Shown in pieces: positions 37,124 through 64,000 of a DNA stretch of 64,000 nt (positions are counted from its first letter, which is position 1; every line of letters begins with the position of its first letter). Position numbers and translations under genes: made by a program. Location of the stretch: positions 18,903 to 82,902 of the forward strand of contig JANOFO010000011.1 in assembly GCA_031413715.1 (NCBI GenBank). Reading direction: 5' to 3'. This DNA is from Minisyncoccota bacterium (lineage in GTDB: Bacteria > Patescibacteriota > Minisyncoccia > Phycocordibacterales > UBA9973). Under the pieces are notes generated by a model. That model saw only the letters and a list, made by a program, of their open reading frames with translations. It was not told where the DNA came from and made no database searches.

Positions 37124-37137
37124 ATTTACAAAATCTG

Positions 37138-37208
37138 TGCGGGATAAGAGAATCGAACTCTTGCCAGCAGTTTGGAAAACTGCAGTTCTACCACTAAACT
37201 AATCCCGC
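37138..37208 (-). tRNA. tRNA-Gly (anticodon UCC), no encoded CCA
   Basis: Hand-folded cloverleaf: acceptor GCGGGAT/ATCCCGC, anticodon stem GCAGT/ACTGC with loop TTTCCAA, T-arm AAGAG-TTCGATT-CTCTT. Confidence 0.8.
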
Positions 37209-37359
37209 AAATTGAGTGCTGGGAATTTCGACTCTTACAGAGTCAGTGTGCCTTTTCAATTTGCTAACGCAAATAATGAAAAGGTTTTCGAATCCCGGAC
37301 ATACGCAAAGTAGTTTGCGTATCACCCCTACAATACCACGCCAAAGCGCGGTCTTGTTG

Positions 37360-37432
37360 TCGGGGTGCCGGGATTCGAACCCGGAGTCGCCTGTTCCCAA
37401 AACAGGAATGTTAGCCGTTACACCACACCCCG
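37360..37432 (-). tRNA. tRNA-Pro (anticodon UGG), no encoded CCA
   Basis: Acceptor CGGGGTG/CACCCCG, anticodon stem CCTGT/ACAGG loop TTTGGGA, T-arm CCGGG-TTCGAAT-CCCGG. Confidence 0.8.
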
Positions 37433-37490
37433 AAAAATAAACTTCCGCAAAAATACTCACCTATAGTAGCATACTTTTACTTAAAAACAA

Positions 37491-37895
37491 TTATAAAATC
37501 ACATTTTCTATAGTTCTGACTCGTGCTGTTTTATTCTTAATATCCAAATAAACGAGGATAACATCGAACTGCCAAGAGGTGTTCCCTATTCTTTTATGTA
37601 TCAAATATGTCTGGATTGTCCTTGAGAGACGTTTCATCTTCCAGGGATGCATGTTCTCTTCTGGTCTTTTGATAAATGGGTTTTCATCTTTAAAATCAGG
37701 AAGTGCAACACAAGAAACAGATTTGACCTCTACGAAGTACAACTTCCCTTCTTTTTCTGCAATTATATCTATTTCACCCCATTTTTTCGTGTAATTTCTC
37801 TCTAATATGGTGAAATTATGTTTCATGAGAAACTTACAGGCTATATCTTCGCCTAACTGTCCTACTTTTTGAGAATTTGAAGTAAAATTCTTCAT
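37491..37895 (-). CDS. yraN: YraN/UPF0102-family endonuclease
   Basis: GQLGEDIACKFLMKHNFTILERNYTKKWGEIDIIAEKEGKLYFVEVKS matches the UPF0102 signature. Confidence 0.75.
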   Translation of the reverse strand: MKNFTSNSQKVGQLGEDIACKFLMKHNFTILERNYTKKWGEIDIIAEKEGKLYFVEVKSVSCVALPDFKDENPFIKRPEENMHPWKMKRLSRTIQTYLIHKRIGNTSWQFDVILVYLDIKNKTARVRTIENVIL

Positions 37896-38156
37896 AAGTG
37901 TTTCACGTGAAACAGTTAATTATTTATCGGACATATATTTGAATAGTAAATTCTGTCCTTCAAAAATTACCATTATATTGTAAGTCTATTTTTAATAAAA
38001 ATCAATATGCCTGTATTTTGTAGCTTTAGTAAAGAAGTGTCTTTTATCAACAATGCACACATAGTTATCCACAAAAATCTTAATTTAAAAGGTTTTTAGT
38101 AGGGGATAAAAGACGAATAACGGTCACATTGAGATTGAGTATCAGAGACAAAATTG

Positions 38157-38227
38157 TGCGGCGTAGGAGAATCGAACTCCTGTCTCATCCTTGGCAAGGA
38201 CGTGTTCTACCACTAAACCAACACCGC
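38157..38227 (-). tRNA. tRNA-Gly (anticodon GCC), no encoded CCA
   Basis: Acceptor GCGGTGT/ACGCCGC, anticodon loop TTGCCAA, T-arm AGGAG-TTCGATT-CTCCT. Confidence 0.8.
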
Positions 38228-38327
38228 ATTAAAACATGCCAATTATAATATTTTTATTTAAATAAAGCAATTATTTCTTCGGAATTTAGTTGTTTTTCGA
38301 AGAATTTTGTGGTAAGATAGTTTTGCA

Positions 38328-38771
38328 GTGAAAAAGTGCACTAGATGTAAAAAAGAAAAGCCTGTAGAGGAATTCAATTTTAAAATCAAGAAAACAGGAT
38401 TACGGCAATTACAATGCCGAGAATGTACTCGCTTATTAATTAAAAACCATTATAATACAAACAAGCAGTATTATTTATTAAAAGCAAGAAAGCGTAATAA
38501 AATTTTGCGCGATGAAATTAACCTTTATATATATGAGTATTTATCAAGAAATCCTTGTGTAGATTGCGGGGAATCAGATGTTGTCGTTCTAGAGTTTGAT
38601 CACATGGGAATAGTCCCAAAATTAAATACAGTCTCCTTCTTAGCAAGAGTACATCGTCCGATAAATGAGATACAAGCAGAAATGGATAAATGCGAAGTTA
38701 GATGTGCTAACTGTCATAAAAGAAAAACCGCAAGAGATTTTAAATGGTTTAAAAATAATATGCGCCCGTAG
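38328..38771 (+). CDS. HNH endonuclease with N-terminal zinc ribbon; 3' end overlaps tRNA-Arg
   Basis: CTRCKK...CRECTR ribbon; CVDCGESDVVVLEFDH...CANCH HNH core; stop codon TAG at 38769-38771 lies inside the tRNA acceptor stem. Confidence 0.7.
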   Translation: MKKCTRCKKEKPVEEFNFKIKKTGLRQLQCRECTRLLIKNHYNTNKQYYLLKARKRNKILRDEINLYIYEYLSRNPCVDCGESDVVVLEFDHMGIVPKLNTVSFLARVHRPINEIQAEMDKCEVRCANCHKRKTARDFKWFKNNMRP

Positions 38772-38834
38772 CTCAACGGATAGAGCATTTGTCTTCGGAA
38801 CAAAAGGTTGGGGGTTCGATTCCCTCCGGGCGCA
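38762..38834 (+). tRNA. tRNA-Arg (anticodon UCG)
   Basis: Acceptor GCGCCCG/CGGGCGC, D-arm GCTCAACGGATAGAGC, anticodon stem TTTGT/ACAAA with loop CTTCGGA, T-arm GGGGG-TTCGATT-CCCTC. Confidence 0.85.
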
Positions 38835-38846
38835 CCCAAGTTTCCT

Positions 38847-40418
38847 ATGAAACTATCTATAGACAACAATCTAATACCCTCATATGTTACACATGTAACA
38901 GAAACGCTTGAAAAGGGCGGTTTTGAGGCTTTTCTTGTAGGTGGTTGTGTTCGCGATCTTATTATGAGTAAAGTACCAAAGGATTGGGATATAACTACTA
39001 ACGCCACTCCAAATCAGATAATAGCCTTATTTGAAAAGACAGTGTATGAAAATACTTATGGAACAGTAGGGGTAGTAGTGGACGTTCCACCCGCCGACGG
39101 AGTACCTGTGTCGGACAGGCATGAAACAGAAGAAACTGTTATTCGTGAAACGTTTCTAGGGGCTAGTAGTAAAGAGTTTAAAGCTATTGTTGAAGTTACT
39201 CCATATAGAATTGAGGCAAAATATAGCGATTTTAGACACCCCGACGAAGTCAGGTTTAGTGATAGCATCGAGGACGACCTTAAAAGACGTGATTTTACTA
39301 TGAATGCCTTGGCATACAACCCCTCTAAAACGTCCATTATTGACCTCTATAAAGGACAAACAGACATAAAGGACAAAGTGGTCAGAGCAGTGGGCAACGC
39401 CTCAGATAGATTCAATGAGGATGCATTGCGTATGCTTCGAGCAGTCAGATTTGCAACACAACTTGGCTTTGCGATTGAGTACGATACCATGCAAGCAATT
39501 GTTGATAATTCTGAACTTCTAAAGAATATTTCAGGAGAAAGAATCCGAGATGAATTCGTAAAAATTATTGAATCTAAAAACCCAGCAATGGGAATTGGTA
39601 TGCTTTCAAAACTTGGATTATTGAAATACATAATTCCGGAGCTTGAAGAAGGAATTGGTAATGAGCAAGGCGGGGCACATATATACGATGTTTTCGAGCA
39701 CTGTCTCCAGGCACTTGATCATTCTGCCAACAAAGGATTCTCAACAGAAATCCGTCTGTCAGCGCTCTTTCATGATATCGGCAAACCCCGCACCAAAAGG
39801 CTGCCGCCTTTGGTACGGGGCAAGCCTCTTAAACCAACATTTTATGGCCATGAAGTCGTGGGAGCAAGGATGGCAGGCAAAATAATGGAGCGACTGAAGT
39901 TCTCAAAGAAAACTACGGATCTAGTCGTTTCTCTTGTTCGCAACCACATGTTTTTCTCTGATACGGAACAAATCACGCTATCTGCAGTTCGACGCATTGT
40001 ACAGAAAGTAAGAAAGGAGCATATCTGGGAACTTATGCAGATACGCGAATGCGATCGCGTCGGCATGAAGAAAAAAGAAGCGCCATATCGTCTGCGTAAA
40101 TATCATGCCATGATCGAAGAAGTACTCCGCGATCCGATCTCCGTCGGCCAGCTCGCAATCGACGGGGAAGTGATGATCAAAGAACTCGAAATGAAACCAT
40201 CTCGCCGGATGGGATGGATCTTGCATGCGCTTTTAGAAGTTGTACTCGATGATCCGAAAAAAAATACAGTAGGATATCTAAAAGAAAAAGCGCTTGAGCT
40301 CGATAAACTTACTGAGAAAGAATTAGAAAAACTTGGTGAGGCTGGAAAAGAGAAGAAGGAAGAACTTGAAGAGGAAGAAGTGGCAAAAGTCCATGCCAAG
40401 CATGGGGTAAAAAAATAA
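38847..40418 (+). CDS. cca: CCA-adding tRNA nucleotidyltransferase with HD domain
   Basis: FLVGGCVRDLIMSKVPKDWDITT polymerase-beta head; LFHDIGKP HD motif; start at ATG 38847 just after the tRNA. Confidence 0.85.
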   Translation: MKLSIDNNLIPSYVTHVTETLEKGGFEAFLVGGCVRDLIMSKVPKDWDITTNATPNQIIALFEKTVYENTYGTVGVVVDVPPADGVPVSDRHETEETVIRETFLGASSKEFKAIVEVTPYRIEAKYSDFRHPDEVRFSDSIEDDLKRRDFTMNALAYNPSKTSIIDLYKGQTDIKDKVVRAVGNASDRFNEDALRMLRAVRFATQLGFAIEYDTMQAIVDNSELLKNISGERIRDEFVKIIESKNPAMGIGMLSKLGLLKYIIPELEEGIGNEQGGAHIYDVFEHCLQALDHSANKGFSTEIRLSALFHDIGKPRTKRLPPLVRGKPLKPTFYGHEVVGARMAGKIMERLKFSKKTTDLVVSLVRNHMFFSDTEQITLSAVRRIVQKVRKEHIWELMQIRECDRVGMKKKEAPYRLRKYHAMIEEVLRDPISVGQLAIDGEVMIKELEMKPSRRMGWILHALLEVVLDDPKKNTVGYLKEKALELDKLTEKELEKLGEAGKEKKEELEEEEVAKVHAKHGVKK

Positions 40419-40876: not shown

Positions 40877-41368
40877 ATGATCACAAAAGAACAATACATA
40901 GAAGCGCTCGTGAATGAATTTCGCATTATAAAGCACTTGGCCGAAAAAGTGAAGCCAGAGCAACTCTCGCATAAGCCGACGGAGAAGCAGCGGACAACCA
41001 ACGAACTGCTTCATTATTTGACTCATATATTTAGCGCTGGAGTCGATGGGGTAGTAAGCGGGGACGCGGATGCATGGAAAAAGCATTTCGGGAGTCCAGC
41101 ACCAACGCTCGAAAATTTCGCGGAGCTCATAGACAAAGAAGAAAAAGAAATAAGAGACATGCTTGCACCACTTACAGAAGATGATCTTGCAAAGGAAATC
41201 GCCATGTGGGGTATGACTCAGAGCCGGGCACTTCACCTCCTTGGACTCCTCAAGATTGCATCAGCATACAAAATGCAGTTATTCCTTTATATGAAACAAT
41301 CGGGTACCGAGAATATCGGCACGATGAATCTCTGGGCTGGTATGGATCAACCACCAAAAGCAAATTAA
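40877..41368 (+). CDS. Hypothetical helical protein (possibly DinB/YfiT-like four-helix bundle)
   Basis: 163 aa; family assignment weak. Confidence 0.5.
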   Translation: MITKEQYIEALVNEFRIIKHLAEKVKPEQLSHKPTEKQRTTNELLHYLTHIFSAGVDGVVSGDADAWKKHFGSPAPTLENFAELIDKEEKEIRDMLAPLTEDDLAKEIAMWGMTQSRALHLLGLLKIASAYKMQLFLYMKQSGTENIGTMNLWAGMDQPPKAN

Positions 41369-41371
41369 ATT

Positions 41372-41403
41372 AAAATCCCTCCGACCTAGGTCGGAGGGAT
41401 TTT
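41372..41403. terminator. Perfect 32-bp palindrome aaaatccctccgacc-ta-ggtcggagggatttt between convergent genes (bidirectional terminator)
   Basis: Seen directly. Confidence 0.7.
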
Positions 41404-41406
41404 AAT

Positions 41407-43104
41407 TTATACAAATTCCTGTTGGTAGCATTTTTCGCAGTAGACAGTCTCGGGTCGATCAGGAGCAAACGCTGTTGTGATATCGGCATTGCACTTTGCG
41501 CAGTTTCTTTTCCAGAGGTGTGGGGGATTGAGTCTATCGAAACGAGCCTTCTGTCTGCACTGTGGACAAAAATGGGGAATGGGTAAAGAAAGCTTAATCA
41601 AGAGATTCAATTCATCAGGAATTATTTTGTAAGCTCGTGAACAATGTGAACACGAGATCACTTCATTAGTGATAGAGGAGGTTGTGTTCTCTATGATATC
41701 AGGAAGAGAGGATGCATCTATAGTGGTTGTGGTTGTAGGATTTTCTGTCTCACTCCATCTATATCCTTGCGCCAATATATCTTCTTTGGCTTTCGGAAAG
41801 AACCTCATAGCATTAGATTTATTATATGGAAATTTACTTATCTCAGGTGGGAAGAACTCTCCGTAAGGAAAATTTCGTCCTTGTGCATCTATATATGTAT
41901 TCTTCTTCATATCCTCGATAATCTGAGCTTTTAGTTTCTCAAATTCCTCTTTAAAATATTCTTTATTTAAAATACAATATGATTTTCTTTTTAAATTAAC
42001 ACAGCCAAAATTATTTTTCCCAGAAATATTCCAGATGCAGTACTGCAGATTAAATACATCTGGCCAACATTCCAAAGAAAAGTAAACAGAGTCAGTATTT
42101 TCACCAACAGTCACACTTTCATATATACTAGTTGCATTATTGCCCCAACCCGAATAATCTACGCAGTCTTTTGCAGGCTTCACCGTGATAAACTCACATC
42201 TTCTACAATCTTCCGCGCCACTGCAAATATACATATTTTCTGAATTTTTGGACTCGTATGTGTATTCTCCTGTGACATTTAAATTCAAGGAGTTGCCGCT
42301 ATACTCTCGATTTGGTTTTGTGAGCCAAAACGCCCTTGAAGTCTTTTTTAATTCTTGCAATTTTTCCCAAGAATCAAGACCCAATTCCTTGAGCTTTTCT
42401 GCGTATTCTTCTTTAGAATATTTCACATTGAAGATAGAATAAGATTCTCCGCGTAGATTTACACATCCGACACAATTAGTGCAGTTGTAGCAATTACGTG
42501 AGAACCATACATCGACACAAGTATCACATTCCTCGGAGAAGAAAGTCTGGTAGCATTTATTAATTCCGATTGATTCATAGCAGAGTTCGCAATCCAGTGC
42601 GCGCAAACAATCAGCACTATATTTTACAGTATTTAAAAGTGAAGAATAATAAACATTGTCACAAAAATCAGCCCAAAATATCAAGTAACAATCTTTAGAC
42701 CATGCGAGGGCATTGGCGTAATTACAATTTTTATTACTTATATAAAGACTCGTCAGAGCAGAGTAGGGAGTCTTGTTGGTAAGTTCTTTTACCTGTTCTA
42801 GGAATGGACGTGTTGGGTCATAGTCCATGCCGTATTCAGTGCCATCCCAATCATCTTTCCACCAACATGGTTGGCAGTAGATGCTCATTTTTTCTTCTGG
42901 TGAATACACAGAGAGGGTTTTATCGCCGCATTTATCACAATTGCGCCAACTTAAATTCCAGGTATTTTGAAATGCGAAGCGTCTGACAAGTCGGCACTCC
43001 GGACACCATGTCGGGTAGGGAACATTGATCTTCTTATAGTAAAGCTGATCGCGTTCATCAATACCGAAATCTTTTTTACAATTCTGACAGCTTCTTGTTT
43101 CCAT
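41407..43104 (-). CDS. Large Cys-rich protein with paired zinc-ribbon (CxxC...CxxC) modules at both termini
   Basis: 565 aa, ~50 Cys; N-terminal CQNCKK...CPECR, CDKCGDK...CQPCW; C-terminal CSHCSR...CPQCRQ, CAKCNAD...CEKCYQ; internal duplicated Cys-spaced segments; paralog begins at 63887. Confidence 0.7.
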   Translation of the reverse strand: METRSCQNCKKDFGIDERDQLYYKKINVPYPTWCPECRLVRRFAFQNTWNLSWRNCDKCGDKTLSVYSPEEKMSIYCQPCWWKDDWDGTEYGMDYDPTRPFLEQVKELTNKTPYSALTSLYISNKNCNYANALAWSKDCYLIFWADFCDNVYYSSLLNTVKYSADCLRALDCELCYESIGINKCYQTFFSEECDTCVDVWFSRNCYNCTNCVGCVNLRGESYSIFNVKYSKEEYAEKLKELGLDSWEKLQELKKTSRAFWLTKPNREYSGNSLNLNVTGEYTYESKNSENMYICSGAEDCRRCEFITVKPAKDCVDYSGWGNNATSIYESVTVGENTDSVYFSLECWPDVFNLQYCIWNISGKNNFGCVNLKRKSYCILNKEYFKEEFEKLKAQIIEDMKKNTYIDAQGRNFPYGEFFPPEISKFPYNKSNAMRFFPKAKEDILAQGYRWSETENPTTTTTIDASSLPDIIENTTSSITNEVISCSHCSRAYKIIPDELNLLIKLSLPIPHFCPQCRQKARFDRLNPPHLWKRNCAKCNADITTAFAPDRPETVYCEKCYQQEFV

Positions 43105-43107
43105 ATA

Positions 43108-43704
43108 TTAATTCATCTTTACTTTAATTATTCCAGTATTATTTTCGCTCGATAAATATCCTGTCCACTTTTCTAATTCTGGTACCTCTATAGAAAGCGG
43201 TATCTCTGGTTTAGTAAAAACGACAATACTTTCAAAAGATTTTTGTAGTATCTCTGCCTTTGCTACACACATATCAATATTGCCCGAAAGGACAAGCTTG
43301 TTTAGATCAAGGCATACCTTAAACACATCCTGGCCAAATGCTTCGATATTCTTAACAAGAATCACTCTTTCATCTATATCTTCCAGCTCTTTAATCGCCT
43401 CGATAAATAAATTCTCATTGCCGCTATCGAGAATCAAGACCTCGCTATCCTTGTTATATTTTAAATCTTCGATTGTGCTAGCAAAAGTTATTTTAGAATG
43501 ATCAGGTCCAATCTGTTCGAGAAAGTTATCCTTGGCCATAGGAAATGCAGTAAAAAATAATATCTTGGAACCTGCTCGAAAAAGCTCTGCTATGAGGCTT
43601 ACAGTAAAATGAGAACCTCCAGACTTCTCTCCATAGATAACTAAGTATGGCAGATCTTGTTCGGTTATTTTATAAGCCCCATTATTGAGTATAATTTCAT
43701 TCAT
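43108..43704 (-). CDS. RecA/KaiC-like P-loop-fold protein with degenerate Walker A, translationally coupled to the Cys-rich gene
   Basis: LVIYGEKSGGSHFTVSLIAELFRAGSKILFFT resembles KaiC/RadA-type ATPase core but GEKSGGS lacks the GK[ST]; 3-nt gap to upstream gene. Confidence 0.5.
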   Translation of the reverse strand: MNEIILNNGAYKITEQDLPYLVIYGEKSGGSHFTVSLIAELFRAGSKILFFTAFPMAKDNFLEQIGPDHSKITFASTIEDLKYNKDSEVLILDSGNENLFIEAIKELEDIDERVILVKNIEAFGQDVFKVCLDLNKLVLSGNIDMCVAKAEILQKSFESIVVFTKPEIPLSIEVPELEKWTGYLSSENNTGIIKVKMN

Positions 43705-43757: not shown

Positions 43758-44510
43758 TTAACCCAGTTCAAGCTCCTGTTCAACTTGGTTTACAAATTCG
43801 AAAAAAGATTTATCTTTTTTTAACTGGTGGCTCCGTGGTCTTGAAAAAGGGACATCAAATATCTTTTTTATTTGGGCGGGTCGCTTAGACAAAACAACAA
43901 TCTTATCAGATAGGAAAGCTGCTTCAGCAACATCATGAGTAACAAATAAAACGGTCATTTTCTCTTTCTCCCAAATTCGAGTCAAGAGCTCTTGCATTTG
44001 AGATCGAGTTTGTGAATCAAGAGAACCAAATGGTTCATCCATAAGTAGGATTTTGGGTGTATTGGCTAGAGCGCGCGCAATGGCTACTCTTTGCTGCATA
44101 CCTCCGGAAAGATTCTTTGGGTGCGCAGTGCTGAAGTCTTTCAATCCTGTCATTTCAAGATAATGATCAAGAAGTTCTTTTTTATTCGCTTCTGAAAAAT
44201 CTTCCTTTAGATTAAGGCCAAATAATATATTATCTTCTACTGAGAGCCAGGGGAAAAGAGAGAAGTTTTGAAACACCATGCCTTTTTCTTGACTAGCACC
44301 TATCGTTTCTTTTTCATCAATAAGAATCGACCCGCTATTTTTTTCGACAAGACCGGAAACAAGACGCAAGATTGTGCTCTTGCCACAGCCGCTCGGTCCG
44401 ACGATTGAAATAAACTCCGAATCTCCAATTACCAAATCAAGGTTCTCAACAGCAAGAATTTGTGATTTTAAATTCGTATATTGTTTTGTAAGATTTTTAA
44501 TTTTAAGCAT
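43758..44510 (-). CDS. ABC transporter ATP-binding protein (NitT/TauT family)
   Basis: Walker [10 protein letters not shown], signature LSGGMQQRV, Walker B LLMDEPF. Confidence 0.9.
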
Positions 44511-45279
44511 ACGATTTGTCTGTCCAAGGGAATAATATTCTTGAGCTAATCTTAAAAAGATAATCTGTTAGGATCCCAAGAAAACCGATAACGACGATTC
44601 CCGCGAAAATATTATCTACTCTTAAAAATCTTTGGGACTCGATCATGAGATGCCCCAGACCAGAGGATGAACCAACTATTTCTGCGATAATGACGAATGT
44701 CCAAGCAGCCCCGAACATGATCCGGAAGGAATTCCAAATTGCAGGCATGGAGTAGGGAAGAATGACTTTCCATACAATATCGCTTTTTGTAGCACCAAGT
44801 GTCAGAGCCGCTTCCACAAGCTCTTTTCGGGTAGAGTGGACCGTATCCGCAATGAGAAGGGTCAAATATGGCGCGACGGCTAGTAAAATCAGGGTAATCT
44901 TTCCCATCTCCCCAATTCCACACCAGATAATGATAAGTGGAATAAAAGCAGAAGGTGGAACATAGCGAACAAATCCAATGATCGGTTCAATTGCCGATTC
45001 AGATTTTCGTGATATACCAAAGAGCATGCCGAGCGGCAACGCAATGAAAACAGAGAGGGTAAAACCTATGACAATTCTAAAGAGACTTGCCCCTATATCT
45101 CCAAGTAAATTTCCTTGCGCGAACAACGTTACGATGGAAGTAAGGACAGAGGCCGGTGATGGTAGAAAAAATGACGGGACAATATTGAGGGAGTAGATAA
45201 TCTGCCAAACAATTACAAAAGCGAGTCCTCCGGCAAAGGATAAAAGTAGATATTTGAGTTTTTCTCGTTTTGTTTCCAT
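44503..45279 (-). CDS. ABC transporter permease (NitT/TauT family)
   Basis: 6 TM; EAA-like loop ...AALTLGATKSDIVWKVILP. Confidence 0.85.
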   Translation of the reverse strand: METKREKLKYLLLSFAGGLAFVIVWQIIYSLNIVPSFFLPSPASVLTSIVTLFAQGNLLGDIGASLFRIVIGFTLSVFIALPLGMLFGISRKSESAIEPIIGFVRYVPPSAFIPLIIIWCGIGEMGKITLILLAVAPYLTLLIADTVHSTRKELVEAALTLGATKSDIVWKVILPYSMPAIWNSFRIMFGAAWTFVIIAEIVGSSSGLGHLMIESQRFLRVDNIFAGIVVIGFLGILTDYLFKISSRILFPWTDKSYA

Positions 45280-45286
45280 ACATTAA

Positions 45287-46279
45287 CTACTTGTTTAAAG
45301 ATTTCAATAGTGAATCATCAATAATAGAATTCGCGGCAGTAGATTTTCTAATCAATCCAAGTCTCTGCCACAGTGCACCTGCCTGATCAATCACATGATA
45401 AATGGAAGTATCACCTTTAGAGAAATATTTCATATTATCCTCATACGTTGTCCATTTAAATGTTGTCATCTGATCGACAACATCTTGCTTATTTAAATTA
45501 AAACCTTTCGCTATTATTTCGTATGATTCGTCAGGATGTGAAACTACGTAATCCATAGCAGTAAATACTCCTCGCATAAACGCTTTTACATCTTCAGGGC
45601 GATTTTCTACAACCTCTGCTCTCCAAATAGGACCACCAGGTAGTATTGGTAAATTCTTTGAAGACACAAGAAGGTGGCCACCTTCTTGATCAGTTGATTT
45701 CGAGAGCCATGGTTCCCACGTAACAGCTGCATCGACTTTTCCGGCTACAAAAGAAGCTCCTGCGTCAGCTGCACTTTGATTAATCGTTTTTATCTCAGAA
45801 GCATCAATGTGGTTTTGATCAAGTAAATATGAAAGGAGTAGGTGAGAAGGTGAGCCGGTTTCATATGCTATTGTTTTGCCTTTCAAATCTTCGAGGGTAT
45901 TGATCCCTTTTTTGACAACGATTCCGTCCGCTCCATCAGAGACATCATTAAGAGAAACAATTTTTATTGGAACTCCCGCATCAGCTAAAATCTGGACAGT
46001 TTCAGGCGTCCAACTTGTTATTGCATCGACTTTCCCCGAGGCAAGAAGCTGTTTTGCAATAGTATTTTCATCAGTTTGCTCAAGTTCAACGATGACTCCT
46101 TCTTTTTCCCAGAAACCCTTTTCTTCCGCGATAAAATATATACCACTACCAATCCAGGTGTTAAAGCTAATGCGCAACGGTTCTTGAGTTATTCTTTCTT
46201 CCGGCCGATTAAATATAAAAATTCCTACTCCGAGAAGAACAATAATACTAACTATGATCAAAATATATTTATTATTCAT
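45287..46279 (-). CDS. ABC transporter substrate-binding protein (NMT1/SsuA/TauA-like)
   Basis: Signal anchor plus periplasmic-binding-fold sequence; operon with permease/ATPase. Confidence 0.75.
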   Translation of the reverse strand: MNNKYILIIVSIIVLLGVGIFIFNRPEERITQEPLRISFNTWIGSGIYFIAEEKGFWEKEGVIVELEQTDENTIAKQLLASGKVDAITSWTPETVQILADAGVPIKIVSLNDVSDGADGIVVKKGINTLEDLKGKTIAYETGSPSHLLLSYLLDQNHIDASEIKTINQSAADAGASFVAGKVDAAVTWEPWLSKSTDQEGGHLLVSSKNLPILPGGPIWRAEVVENRPEDVKAFMRGVFTAMDYVVSHPDESYEIIAKGFNLNKQDVVDQMTTFKWTTYEDNMKYFSKGDTSIYHVIDQAGALWQRLGLIRKSTAANSIIDDSLLKSLNK

Positions 46280-61116: not shown

Positions 61117-61596
61117 ATGATTATTGCTGAAAAAATATTAACACTTCTTAATACCCAAACATCTCGATACAAGGGAGTCCCGTTAAACATATTCGGACTG
61201 CCAGTATTTAAGGAACACCATCCGCAATCAATACGAAATACCGTTTCTAAACTCCACTCTCAAAATCTTATTTTGTACTCAGGATCTTCAATGAAAATAA
61301 CAAAAAATGGTAAAAATTATTTAAAAAGAAGAAGCGTACTCCTGCAAACATTCGAATCTCCATTTAATGATATTCAACCAAAAAACTTACTAGTTTTATT
61401 TGATATTCCTGAAAATCGAAAAGCTGAGCGAGAATGGCTTAGAAGACATCTACGGAGATTCGGATACCATATGATCCAAAAGAGCGTTTGGGTTGGACCT
61501 TCGCCGCTACCTCAAGAATTTATCACTTATATAAAGAAGATACAGCTTAAGGATTCGATAAAAACCTTCAAACTCGCAAAACCATACCTAGGATGA
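61117..61596 (+). CDS. Putative PaaX-like regulator (wHTH plus Cas2-fold-like C-terminal domain)
   Basis: C-terminal LLVLFDIPENRKAEREWLRRHLRRFGYHMIQKSVWV resembles PaaX_C / Cas2-like fold; weak. Confidence 0.4.
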   Translation: MIIAEKILTLLNTQTSRYKGVPLNIFGLPVFKEHHPQSIRNTVSKLHSQNLILYSGSSMKITKNGKNYLKRRSVLLQTFESPFNDIQPKNLLVLFDIPENRKAEREWLRRHLRRFGYHMIQKSVWVGPSPLPQEFITYIKKIQLKDSIKTFKLAKPYLG

Positions 61597-62620: not shown

Positions 62621-63790
62621 ATGAATATAATGTTGCAAATTTGGGGAGGATTATTTTATCTTCTTGCAAAAATTTTTCTCGCAAAAACTGCTGATAAAAA
62701 AGAGTCTCCGCTTAGGCGGCTAGGATGGCTAACATATCTTTTTGGGGCACCCGCATGGATTATTTTGCTTGCCTTAGATAAAAATTGGATAGCTATGGGA
62801 GTAGAAGCGGGTGGCATTCCATCAATGATAGTTGGTCTGGTAAATTCGAAATCAAAAAGAATAAAAAGGATTATACACTGGTTATTATTTTTCCTTATTA
62901 GTTCAAGCATTGTTTATAGTGTTTATGATAAAAATGGTTTTAACACTACTTCTCAATACCTTGAATTGGGAGTGACTCTAGGATTTTTGATTGGAACTTA
63001 CCTACTATCCCAAGAAAATATTTATGGGTGGCTATGGTTCATGTTGATGAACGCAAGTATGGCAATACTAATGTCTATAAATGAAAAGTGGATACTTGTA
63101 ACACTCCAGTTAGTATCTTTATGCATTGTTACCTATGGGTTCTGGAAATCACTCAAAAAGTCTCGACGAAACGAGGGTAATATGGATATAAGCCATTTTT
63201 ATGACATCTTTGTTAATTTTTTCAGCAAAAGGAAATTAATTAAAGTTCAGAAAAAGAGACTGAAAAAATTCCTCCAAGACAATTATTGGGATTTAAAGGA
63301 TCGTAATCCTATGGGTTATATCTGTAAATATTTCAACTGGGAATTCACTGAGCCTAAAGAAAAAGGCTGCATGATTGAGCTGGGAACAATGCCTGATTGC
63401 GATTTTAAATTTACTATTTGGCATAACAAACCATGTATGGAGGAAGACGGACCAAACCCTGGAGAAGGATCCCCACATTGTTTGAATCAGCTAAAAGGCG
63501 ATGAGAAATATTTTACGGTAGAATTATTTGAATTGAACAGCGGTTGGAAAACATACGACACCGGCAGGCCAAGCGGTTATTCAGATACATTCATTTGTAC
63601 AATCCACATTTTGAGGGAAAATTTCACCTTTAAAGAAATGAATATAGGGGAATGGTATCTAGGAACATGCGAAATACCTTTCTTGTTCAATTTTAAGGGT
63701 ACAGGGCGTTCAGGTAGCTTAGTTCTGAAATTTGATCACAAGAATAAAGCTCGTGGAGAATGCACATTGTTTTTTCCAAACTTATTATAA
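62621..63790 (+). CDS. Membrane protein (5 TM) with ~200-aa Cys-containing soluble C-terminal domain
   Basis: Strong SD aaaGGAGGgact before ATG (rare in this window); hydrophobic N-half. Confidence 0.55.
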   Translation: MNIMLQIWGGLFYLLAKIFLAKTADKKESPLRRLGWLTYLFGAPAWIILLALDKNWIAMGVEAGGIPSMIVGLVNSKSKRIKRIIHWLLFFLISSSIVYSVYDKNGFNTTSQYLELGVTLGFLIGTYLLSQENIYGWLWFMLMNASMAILMSINEKWILVTLQLVSLCIVTYGFWKSLKKSRRNEGNMDISHFYDIFVNFFSKRKLIKVQKKRLKKFLQDNYWDLKDRNPMGYICKYFNWEFTEPKEKGCMIELGTMPDCDFKFTIWHNKPCMEEDGPNPGEGSPHCLNQLKGDEKYFTVELFELNSGWKTYDTGRPSGYSDTFICTIHILRENFTFKEMNIGEWYLGTCEIPFLFNFKGTGRSGSLVLKFDHKNKARGECTLFFPNLL

Positions 63791-63886
63791 AACAGTTAAT
63801 TTTTAAACCAGAGAAGAATCCGCCAAAAGTTTTCTTCTCTGCTTTATAAAGTTAATTTAGTGCTATTATTAATTAGTAATATAAAT

Positions 63887-64000
63887 ATGACCAAGCAAAA
63901 TTGTAAAACATGTGAAAAAGAGATTGAGATCCGCAATGAAGACATCGTATTTTACGAGCAAATGAAGGTAGATATTTCAAATTTTTGTCCCGAATGCAGA
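63887..64000 (+). CDS. Cys-rich zinc-ribbon protein, N-terminal fragment; paralog of the 41407-43104 gene (runs off window)
   Basis: MTKQNCKTCEKEIEIRNEDIVFYEQMKVDISNFCPECR aligns with METRSCQNCKKDFGIDERDQLYYKKINVPYPTWCPECR. Confidence 0.6.
   Translation, partial: MTKQNCKTCEKEIEIRNEDIVFYEQMKVDISNFCPECR

Follow-up and report, generated by a model that had tools for sequence, protein, structure and literature searches.

Two adjoining genes, which we call BIG and SMALL, lie on the minus strand of a 64,000-nucleotide stretch of a Minisyncoccota bacterium genome (assembly GCA_031413715.1, contig JANOFO010000011.1, positions 18,903 to 82,902; hereafter the window). Open reading frame (ORF) calling places BIG, of 565 amino acids (aa), at 41407..43104 (minus strand) and SMALL, of 198 aa, at 43108..43704 (minus strand); the latter encodes a single-domain P-loop fold of the HerA/FtsK/VirB4 type within the additional strand, catalytic E (ASCE) division. 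SMALL is transcribed first and BIG second, with a 3-nt gap between them: the TAA stop codon of SMALL is followed by three bases and then by the ATG of BIG, leaving no space for a ribosome-binding site belonging to BIG itself. Because the gap is so short, the two genes are probably co-translated. A preliminary description of this DNA had reported the 3-nt gap correctly and had placed SMALL downstream, a position that is upstream in the direction of transcription. Neither ORF exists by chance, since both have many full-length homologues (best E values of 0 for BIG and 1e-122 for SMALL).

BIG carries 37 cysteines, fewer than the roughly 50 of the preliminary description and equal to the family median (range 27 to 47). 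Sixteen of these form eight CxxC pairs, split over two equally spaced end modules. The N-terminal double zinc-ribbon module (aa 1-90; 42835..43104, minus strand; cysteines 55-99% conserved) has the spacing C6/C9-x24-C34/C37-x18-C56/C59-x17-C77/C80, and the C-terminal double zinc-ribbon module (aa 481-565; 41410..41664, minus strand), which includes a CxxC-x17-CxxC finger, has the spacing C485/C488-x24-C513/C516-x18-C535/C538-x17-C556/C559. In the latter, C485 is invariant and C535, C538, C556, and C559 are 98-99% conserved. The end modules are homologous to each other (local alignment z = 20 against shuffled sequences), in keeping with the earlier view of BIG as a multi-zinc-ribbon protein with paired CxxC motifs at both ends. 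The Pfam family PF23477 (zf_Tbcl_2) matches BIG residues 533-562 (E = 2.7e-7; 30.6 bits, cut-off 27), and the CxxC-x17-CxxC finger scores 25 against TIGR04272, under the cut-off of 36 for that model. The cysteine spacing of zf_Tbcl_2 fingers, as defined by TIGR04272 and PF23477 and as seen in small proteins of M. mazei, equals that of BIG residues 56-80 and 535-559. CxxC-x17-CxxC domains of the M. mazei small proteins were shown experimentally to bind zinc (PMC12704099), and by analogy the BIG end modules would supply four Zn(Cys)4 sites. The M. mazei proteins are single-domain, shorter than 70 aa, and of unknown function, whereas BIG carries this finger as one of four within its 565 aa.

A Pfam scan of 82 BIG family members detected PF23477 in 39 and PF13451 in 22, and profile searches of BIG and of these 82 members gave no enzyme family match (0 of 82 by Pfam), which agrees with the earlier placement of BIG outside known enzyme families. 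Searches of BIG against Pfam, NCBIfam, PADLOC, PHROGs, and PDB sequences recognised the zinc fingers alone.

The centre of BIG is internally duplicated, as had been noted from the letters of the sequence: residues 135-250 can be aligned with residues 287-400 (z = 10 against shuffles). An AlphaFold2 model of BIG, computed from an alignment of 82 diverse homologues, has a predicted local distance difference test score (pLDDT) of 85.8 and a predicted template modelling score (pTM) of 0.86, and contains two strand-rich blocks whose DSSP pattern, E--E--EEEE--, corresponds to coils of ~12 residues, with helices after each block. Half 1 of this beta-solenoid and its helical hairpin span aa 120-262 (42319..42747, minus strand), with a cysteine at every third residue. 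Half 2 and its helix, the internal duplicate of half 1, span aa 263-402 (41899..42318, minus strand) and close with a near-invariant CILNKxYxKEEY motif; in this half I378, N380, and Y383 are invariant and C368, C377, and K381 are more than 90% conserved. Model confidence is lower at aa 271-350 (pLDDT 53-75) and stands at pLDDT 84-97 in the aromatic-rich conserved connector to the C-terminal module (aa 403-480; 41665..41898, minus strand), which bears a GEFFP...SPFxYNE motif with an invariant G415 and with F417, F418, P419, S423, Y427, N428, A432, and G447 more than 90% conserved. All 13 cysteines within residues 120-230 share one modulo-3 register, and across the family cysteine occupancy falls in the same register for 12.8 of 13.1 units. 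Most cysteines of this ladder are just 21-60% conserved; those of the C205/208/211/214 run, together with C368 and C377, reach 83-98%.

BIG is soluble and acidic (pI 5.4), and sequence prediction finds in it no transmembrane or hydrophobic segment and no signal peptide. The protein is best explained as a soluble, non-enzymatic metalloprotein in which zinc-ribbon modules clamp a duplicated narrow beta-solenoid with a cysteine-ladder core. Among solved structures, nothing but generic beta-solenoids resembles it. We compared BIG with the narrow beta-solenoids of insect and plant antifreeze proteins (1m8n, 1eww, 3ult), left-handed beta-helix acyltransferases, bactofilin, and curli; BIG differs from them in having no secretion signal, and none of the known ones has terminal zinc modules. 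Nor does BIG match the hexapeptide-repeat Pfam family (PF00132) expected of a left-handed beta-helix acyltransferase. With its ~12-residue turns, cysteines at every third position, and zinc-ribbon clamps, the predicted fold would be new to structural biology. BIG modules also occur apart, since a single locus encodes both an 85-aa protein that consists of the C-terminal zinc module alone (L154:7318-7575; E = 1.7e-36 with the family hidden Markov model, HMM) and a 437-aa BIG variant without the N-terminal zinc module (L154:13268-14581).

The AlphaFold2 model of SMALL is of very high confidence (pLDDT 96.4, pTM 0.92). Against members of the HerA/FtsK class, SMALL scores 15.1 for HerA, 15.0 for VirB4, 14.1 for the DptH C-domain, 13.0 for EccC, 12.7 for STIV2 B204, 12.3 for TrwB, and 11.9 for FtsK; against the RecA/KaiC class it scores 11.0 for RAD51D, 10.9 for FlaH, 10.8 for Rad51, 9.9 for RecA, and 9.8 for RadA. 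SMALL therefore has an ASCE P-loop fold nearest the FtsK-HerA class, and it displays both the RecA-like ASCE core fold and the FtsK-HerA ATPase-domain fold. The P-loop core suggested earlier thus stands, and the KaiC/RadA-like label gives way to a nearer kinship with HerA, VirB4, and FtsK. No match to SMALL was found in Pfam or NCBIfam at E <= 1, and nothing relevant in PADLOC, PHROGs, or PDB sequences.

The P-loop of SMALL is degenerate, just as the preliminary description had stated. Its sequence, GEKSGGSH (aa 25-32; 43609..43632, minus strand), lies between a strand at residues 20-23 and a helix at residues 30-43 and departs from the Walker A consensus GxxxxGK[ST], serine and histidine filling the lysine and serine/threonine positions family-wide. 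In an alignment of 44 homologues, whose identity to SMALL is 41-76%, residues G29 and S31 never vary, and conservation exceeds 90% at G30 and H32. Because the lysine is lost throughout the family, being missing in all 44 homologues, its absence is not a sequencing error, and the pattern of conservation indicates that the altered P-loop is itself under selection. Elsewhere in the homologue alignment R113 is invariant. As regards Walker B, D93, which follows the strand at residues 89-92, is aspartate or glutamate in most homologues and lysine in some. Judged from the altered Walker A, SMALL probably lacks ATPase activity; with the lysine gone, it probably binds nucleotide rather than hydrolysing it, or merely docks.

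Set beside the reference members of the FtsK-HerA superfamily, namely HerA (4d2i), VirB4 (4ag5), the TrwB/VirD4 coupling proteins (1e9r), and FtsK (2ius), SMALL is a bare domain with neither the Walker A lysine nor membrane or accessory domains, and it has no sequence-profile similarity to them (no DUF87, TrwB, or FtsK Pfam match). It may be likened to the degenerate ATPase domains of EccC, the type VII secretion motor (4nh0, 4n1a, 6j19). The EccC domains, unlike SMALL, are joined within a single membrane protein, and their Walker motifs can still be recognised; type VII secretion genes are absent here.

We examined the pairing of the two genes in a census of 59 genome loci with a called SMALL gene and 80 metagenome loci with BIG. 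A BIG-family gene lies within ~5 kb of SMALL at 11 of the 59 SMALL loci and directly adjoins it at eight (four upstream, four downstream), which makes BIG the commonest SMALL neighbour; no other protein family comes near that frequency. The adjoining BIG genes belong to varied subfamilies, 33-62% identical to BIG of the window, and adjacency is seen in at least six different arrangements. In every arrangement the gap between the genes falls between -8 and +26 nt, compared with a median of 46 nt to the other genes that neighbour SMALL on its own strand. The link is recurrent and tight, but facultative. At two loci (L036:3326-4973 and L051:3309-4983) SMALL directly follows a BIG gene that is broken into two ORFs, possibly through a frameshift, decay into a pseudogene, or a fault in the assembly.

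The 80 metagenome loci contain 173 BIG ORFs, present as same-strand tandem arrays of two to six, so the ribbon family is multi-copy, as first supposed. The most frequent non-BIG neighbour of these arrays is a VirD4/TraD/TrwB-like ATPase (Pfam TrwB_AAD_bind, TraG-D_C, DUF87, T4SS-DNA_transf). Twenty-four such ORFs occur in 18 of the 80 BIG loci, 14 of them directly adjoining a BIG gene; by comparison, only 1 of 48 SMALL loci without BIG has one (Fisher p = 0.0014). The ATPases fall into two classes. The short class, of ~487 aa, retains an intact Walker A, with 67-93% identity from one sample to another; the long class, of 650-865 aa, ends in a CxxC-x17-CxxC finger like that of BIG. The ATPases often bracket a BIG array, one on each side (L102, L110, L138, L143). 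In one Kerfeldbacteria locus (L155) at least five BIG genes accompany two ATPases and a DUF8128-like protein, and a locus from another class (L154) shows the array and ATPase arrangement with DUF8128 fused to the ATPase. Judged from this gene context, the predicted VirD4/TraD-like ATPase pair is a stronger and more general partner of BIG than SMALL is.

The array ATPases score far under every curated TraD, VirD4, and CedD model, and their nearest solved sequence relative is TrwB (E = 1.5e-6). A 2025 survey reported 5,713 VirD4-type type IV coupling protein (T4CP) homologues in 2,918 Patescibacteria genomes, about two per genome, of which only 148 lie near virB4; it raised possible exaptation, left the role open, and examined virB4 neighbourhoods, not T4CP neighbourhoods (PMC12102498). 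The array ATPases fit this description of orphan T4CPs with genes far from virB4 (PMC12102498), and the short class differs from VirD4-type T4CPs in having, by sequence inspection, no N-terminal membrane anchor. The combination of BIG array and orphan ATPase appears to be undescribed in the literature that we searched, and no paper turned up for DUF8128, for the BIG family, or for the Pfam and TIGRFAM accessions of that family. These neighbourhoods tie orphan T4CP-type ATPases to one specific, structurally unusual partner family.

Several other genes accompany the arrays. Small genes that interrupt them, considered as possible partners, look unrelated by inspection alone (NYN-like, methyltransferase-like, MazG-like, methionine aminopeptidase-like, and kinase-like). 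Genes of the toxin-antitoxin or abortive-infection type (Gp49 with a helix-turn-helix, ParE-like, AbiEii) occur in or beside BIG arrays at L154:4633-5263, L154:11635-12143, and L155:19167-20652, and a PaaX_M/Cas2-like domain protein lies near BIG arrays at 5 of the 80 loci (including L138:217-738). Upstream of the ATPase/BIG clusters, five BIG loci (including L144:2383-3423 and L155:3075-4175) encode a protein in which sigma-70 region 4 is joined to a HARE-HTH domain. One lineage (L094, L111, L117, L125, L139) shows conserved synteny of a BIG array followed by genes for phosphoglycerate kinase and a DHH/DHHA1 (RecJ-like) protein.

We tentatively favour the view that BIG is a zinc-stabilised, non-enzymatic solenoid scaffold or adaptor for FtsK/HerA-class ring ATPases, with SMALL as a pseudo-ATPase partner in those lineages that possess it. 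In most genomes the partners would be two orphan ATPases of VirD4/TraD-like type on either side of the arrays, one with the same CxxC-x17-CxxC finger as BIG. Here that place beside BIG would be taken by SMALL, a stand-alone HerA/FtsK-fold domain that may act like a pseudo-ATPase subunit by binding nucleotide or docking. The analysis shows the architecture and folds, the conservation with its family-wide lysine loss, the size of the family, its arrays, and the neighbourhood statistics; we infer zinc occupancy, physical contact of SMALL with BIG, the lack of ATPase activity, and the scaffold or adaptor role. A broader and more doubtful proposal is that BIG arrays, two ATPases, a DUF8128-type membrane protein, and sometimes SMALL together form an undescribed, Patescibacteria-specific motor by which zinc-clamped beta-solenoid proteins would be handled or translocated. 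Such a motor, if real, would explain the purpose of thousands of 'exapted' T4CP genes in reduced genomes. It becomes testable whether the ATPases bind, remodel, or export zinc-solenoid proteins, and whether SMALL is a regulatory or a docking subunit.

Several observations weigh against the scaffold proposal. Unrelated genes interrupt the BIG arrays, which for that reason are not a clean operon, and no VirD4/TraD-like gene lies within the 64-kb window. SMALL and the co-located T4CP-like ATPases align with an hhalign probability of only 0.3%, a value that also rejects, at the sequence level, SMALL as a trimmed copy of those neighbours. No BIG gene is found at 48 of the 59 SMALL loci, SMALL is missing from 78 of the 80 BIG loci (the other two hold it inside the array), the closest relative (L156, BIG 83% identical) has no SMALL beside BIG, nor does L157 (BIG 73% identical), and the neighbourhood counts are not phylogenetically independent. 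The fixed two-gene operon of the preliminary description does not survive these figures, and with it the associated idea of a RecA/KaiC-type nucleic-acid machine has become very improbable and is largely refuted: the pairing is not fixed, HerA, VirB4, and FtsK are clearly closer to SMALL, and no RecA, KaiC, or ATPase Pfam match exists. The missing pairing in most loci and in the closest relative would also be expected if the adjacency were incidental, BIG being a nucleic-acid- or ribosome-associated zinc protein that works without an ATPase and SMALL an unrelated floating regulator. The nearest BIG orthologues usually lie between an RluA-type pseudouridine synthase gene and rplS, arginines that flank the ribbons are conserved (R38, R42, and R521 in more than 90%, R517 invariant), and nucleotide-metabolism genes are among the neighbours of SMALL elsewhere. 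We nevertheless regard this as unlikely: SMALL and BIG adjoin in six or more arrangements, always with a tight gap, no other family recurs beside SMALL, BIG is acidic overall, and the RluA-rplS synteny is restricted to one lineage.

Export of BIG deserves weighing as well. Here the BIG paralogues would be cargo, the ATPases and the DUF8128-type membrane protein a translocon that exports or injects them (for example to affect host cells), and SMALL a cargo chaperone. As is usual for secretion substrates, diverged BIG paralogues stand in tandem next to an ATPase that resembles a coupling protein; upstream of the ATPases lies a gene whose product has a hydrophobic N-terminal segment and a DUF8128-like region; and the T4CP role in Patescibacteria was left open (PMC12102498). 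BIG, however, has no signal peptide, and four Cys4 sites with a cysteine-filled core suit a reducing cytoplasm; its orthologues are 62-83% identical across many genomes, unlike fast-evolving effectors, and the short ATPase class lacks a membrane anchor. On balance we consider export improbable. A redox, iron-sulphur (Fe-S), or metal-storage protein, in which metal ions or clusters would be strung along the cysteine ladder within the solenoid and bound by it, seems less plausible again. The 21 cysteines outside the terminal ribbons keep a strict three-residue register, the C205-x2-C208-x2-C211-x2-C214 run is 83-98% conserved, and AlphaFold2 confidence drops exactly at parts of the ladder, as might follow from missing ligands; yet the low conservation of most ladder cysteines (21-60%) fits core packing better than ligation, and there is no Fe-S or radical-SAM family match. 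One source names a homologue (P0023) 'formylmethanofuran dehydrogenase subunit E', a name for which neither BIG nor the 82 members give an FwdE match in Pfam or NCBIfam.

The BIG family is very large and Patescibacteria-wide, with proteins of about 550-600 aa. It has at least 4,766 homologues, a lower bound from 8,000 scored candidates. The best 120 matches share 62-100% identity with BIG and have lengths of 527-589 aa, in nearly all cases 564-589, and the named entries among these 120 are Patescibacteria hypothetical proteins. An exhaustive search of 50%-identity representatives gave 3,585 clusters at E <= 1e-3 and 1,327 at E <= 1e-30, mostly 520-615 aa in length; remoter members come from Kerfeldbacteria and other Patescibacteria. 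Patescibacteria genomes are ~1 Mb in size, yet many of them retain two to six copies of a 1.7-kb BIG gene, which could approach 1% of such a genome, for a family without known function. SMALL is rarer, with 107 homologues and 63 species-level genome loci. Neither protein falls into a characterised family. Several SMALL-bearing contigs are titled 'uncultured Gammaproteobacteria' or 'Saccharibacteria' (for example L016, L021-L024, and L039), titles that are probably wrong because the contigs carry this Patescibacteria-associated gene. Phage origin was considered and rejected: there were 0 matches in 50,697 GenBank phage records and one partial match in IMG/VR. With respect to anti-phage defence, PADLOC gave no match and PHROGs one weak match of unknown function (E = 1.9e-5).

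At the end of the window, the first 38 codons of a second gene with the family N-terminal ribbon (63887..64000, plus strand) are truncated by the window edge. Among six-frame fragments of the window, this one matches family HMM positions 2-39 (E = 1.5e-9), and tblastn gives 34% identity. The second ribbon gene announced earlier is therefore borne out as far as its N-terminal ribbon, over these 38 codons. A homologue search with the 38-aa fragment (padded with XX) returned no candidate. Given the BIG arrays elsewhere, the fragment is likely a second BIG family member in this genome. The 389-aa gene that precedes the edge copy bears no relation to BIG-array neighbours. In a Logan assembly made independently from this sample, the contig breaks off ~120 nt past this gene (end of L072), at the start of the edge copy (~63790-63910), and a PaaX_M/Cas2-like protein is encoded three genes upstream of that copy (61117-61596).

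Around the gene pair itself, a terminator-like hairpin with a 20-bp stem followed by a T-run begins at the BIG stop codon (41366..41409, minus strand; consensus scan only). Upstream of SMALL lie three co-directional ABC transporter genes (43758..46279, minus strand) for an NMT1-type binding protein, a permease, and an ATPase, identities taken from Pfam annotations of the identical Logan contig L001. The same gene-size order of ABC transporter genes and SMALL/BIG recurs in L012, L014, and L015 and is missing from L156. We therefore rejected a conserved operon with the transporter: the arrangement is confined to the nearest relatives, is absent at 83% BIG identity, and represents local synteny. 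Elsewhere, the window holds four tRNA genes at 37137-38838 (Gly-TCC, Pro-TGG, Gly-GCC, and Arg-TCG). A 147-aa cysteine-rich ORF that looks HNH-endonuclease-like by eye (38328-38771) lies between tRNA-Gly and tRNA-Arg. The mechanically called TTG start of a CCA-adding enzyme ORF (38808-40418) overlaps tRNA-Arg (38761-38838), and the real start of this enzyme probably lies further downstream.

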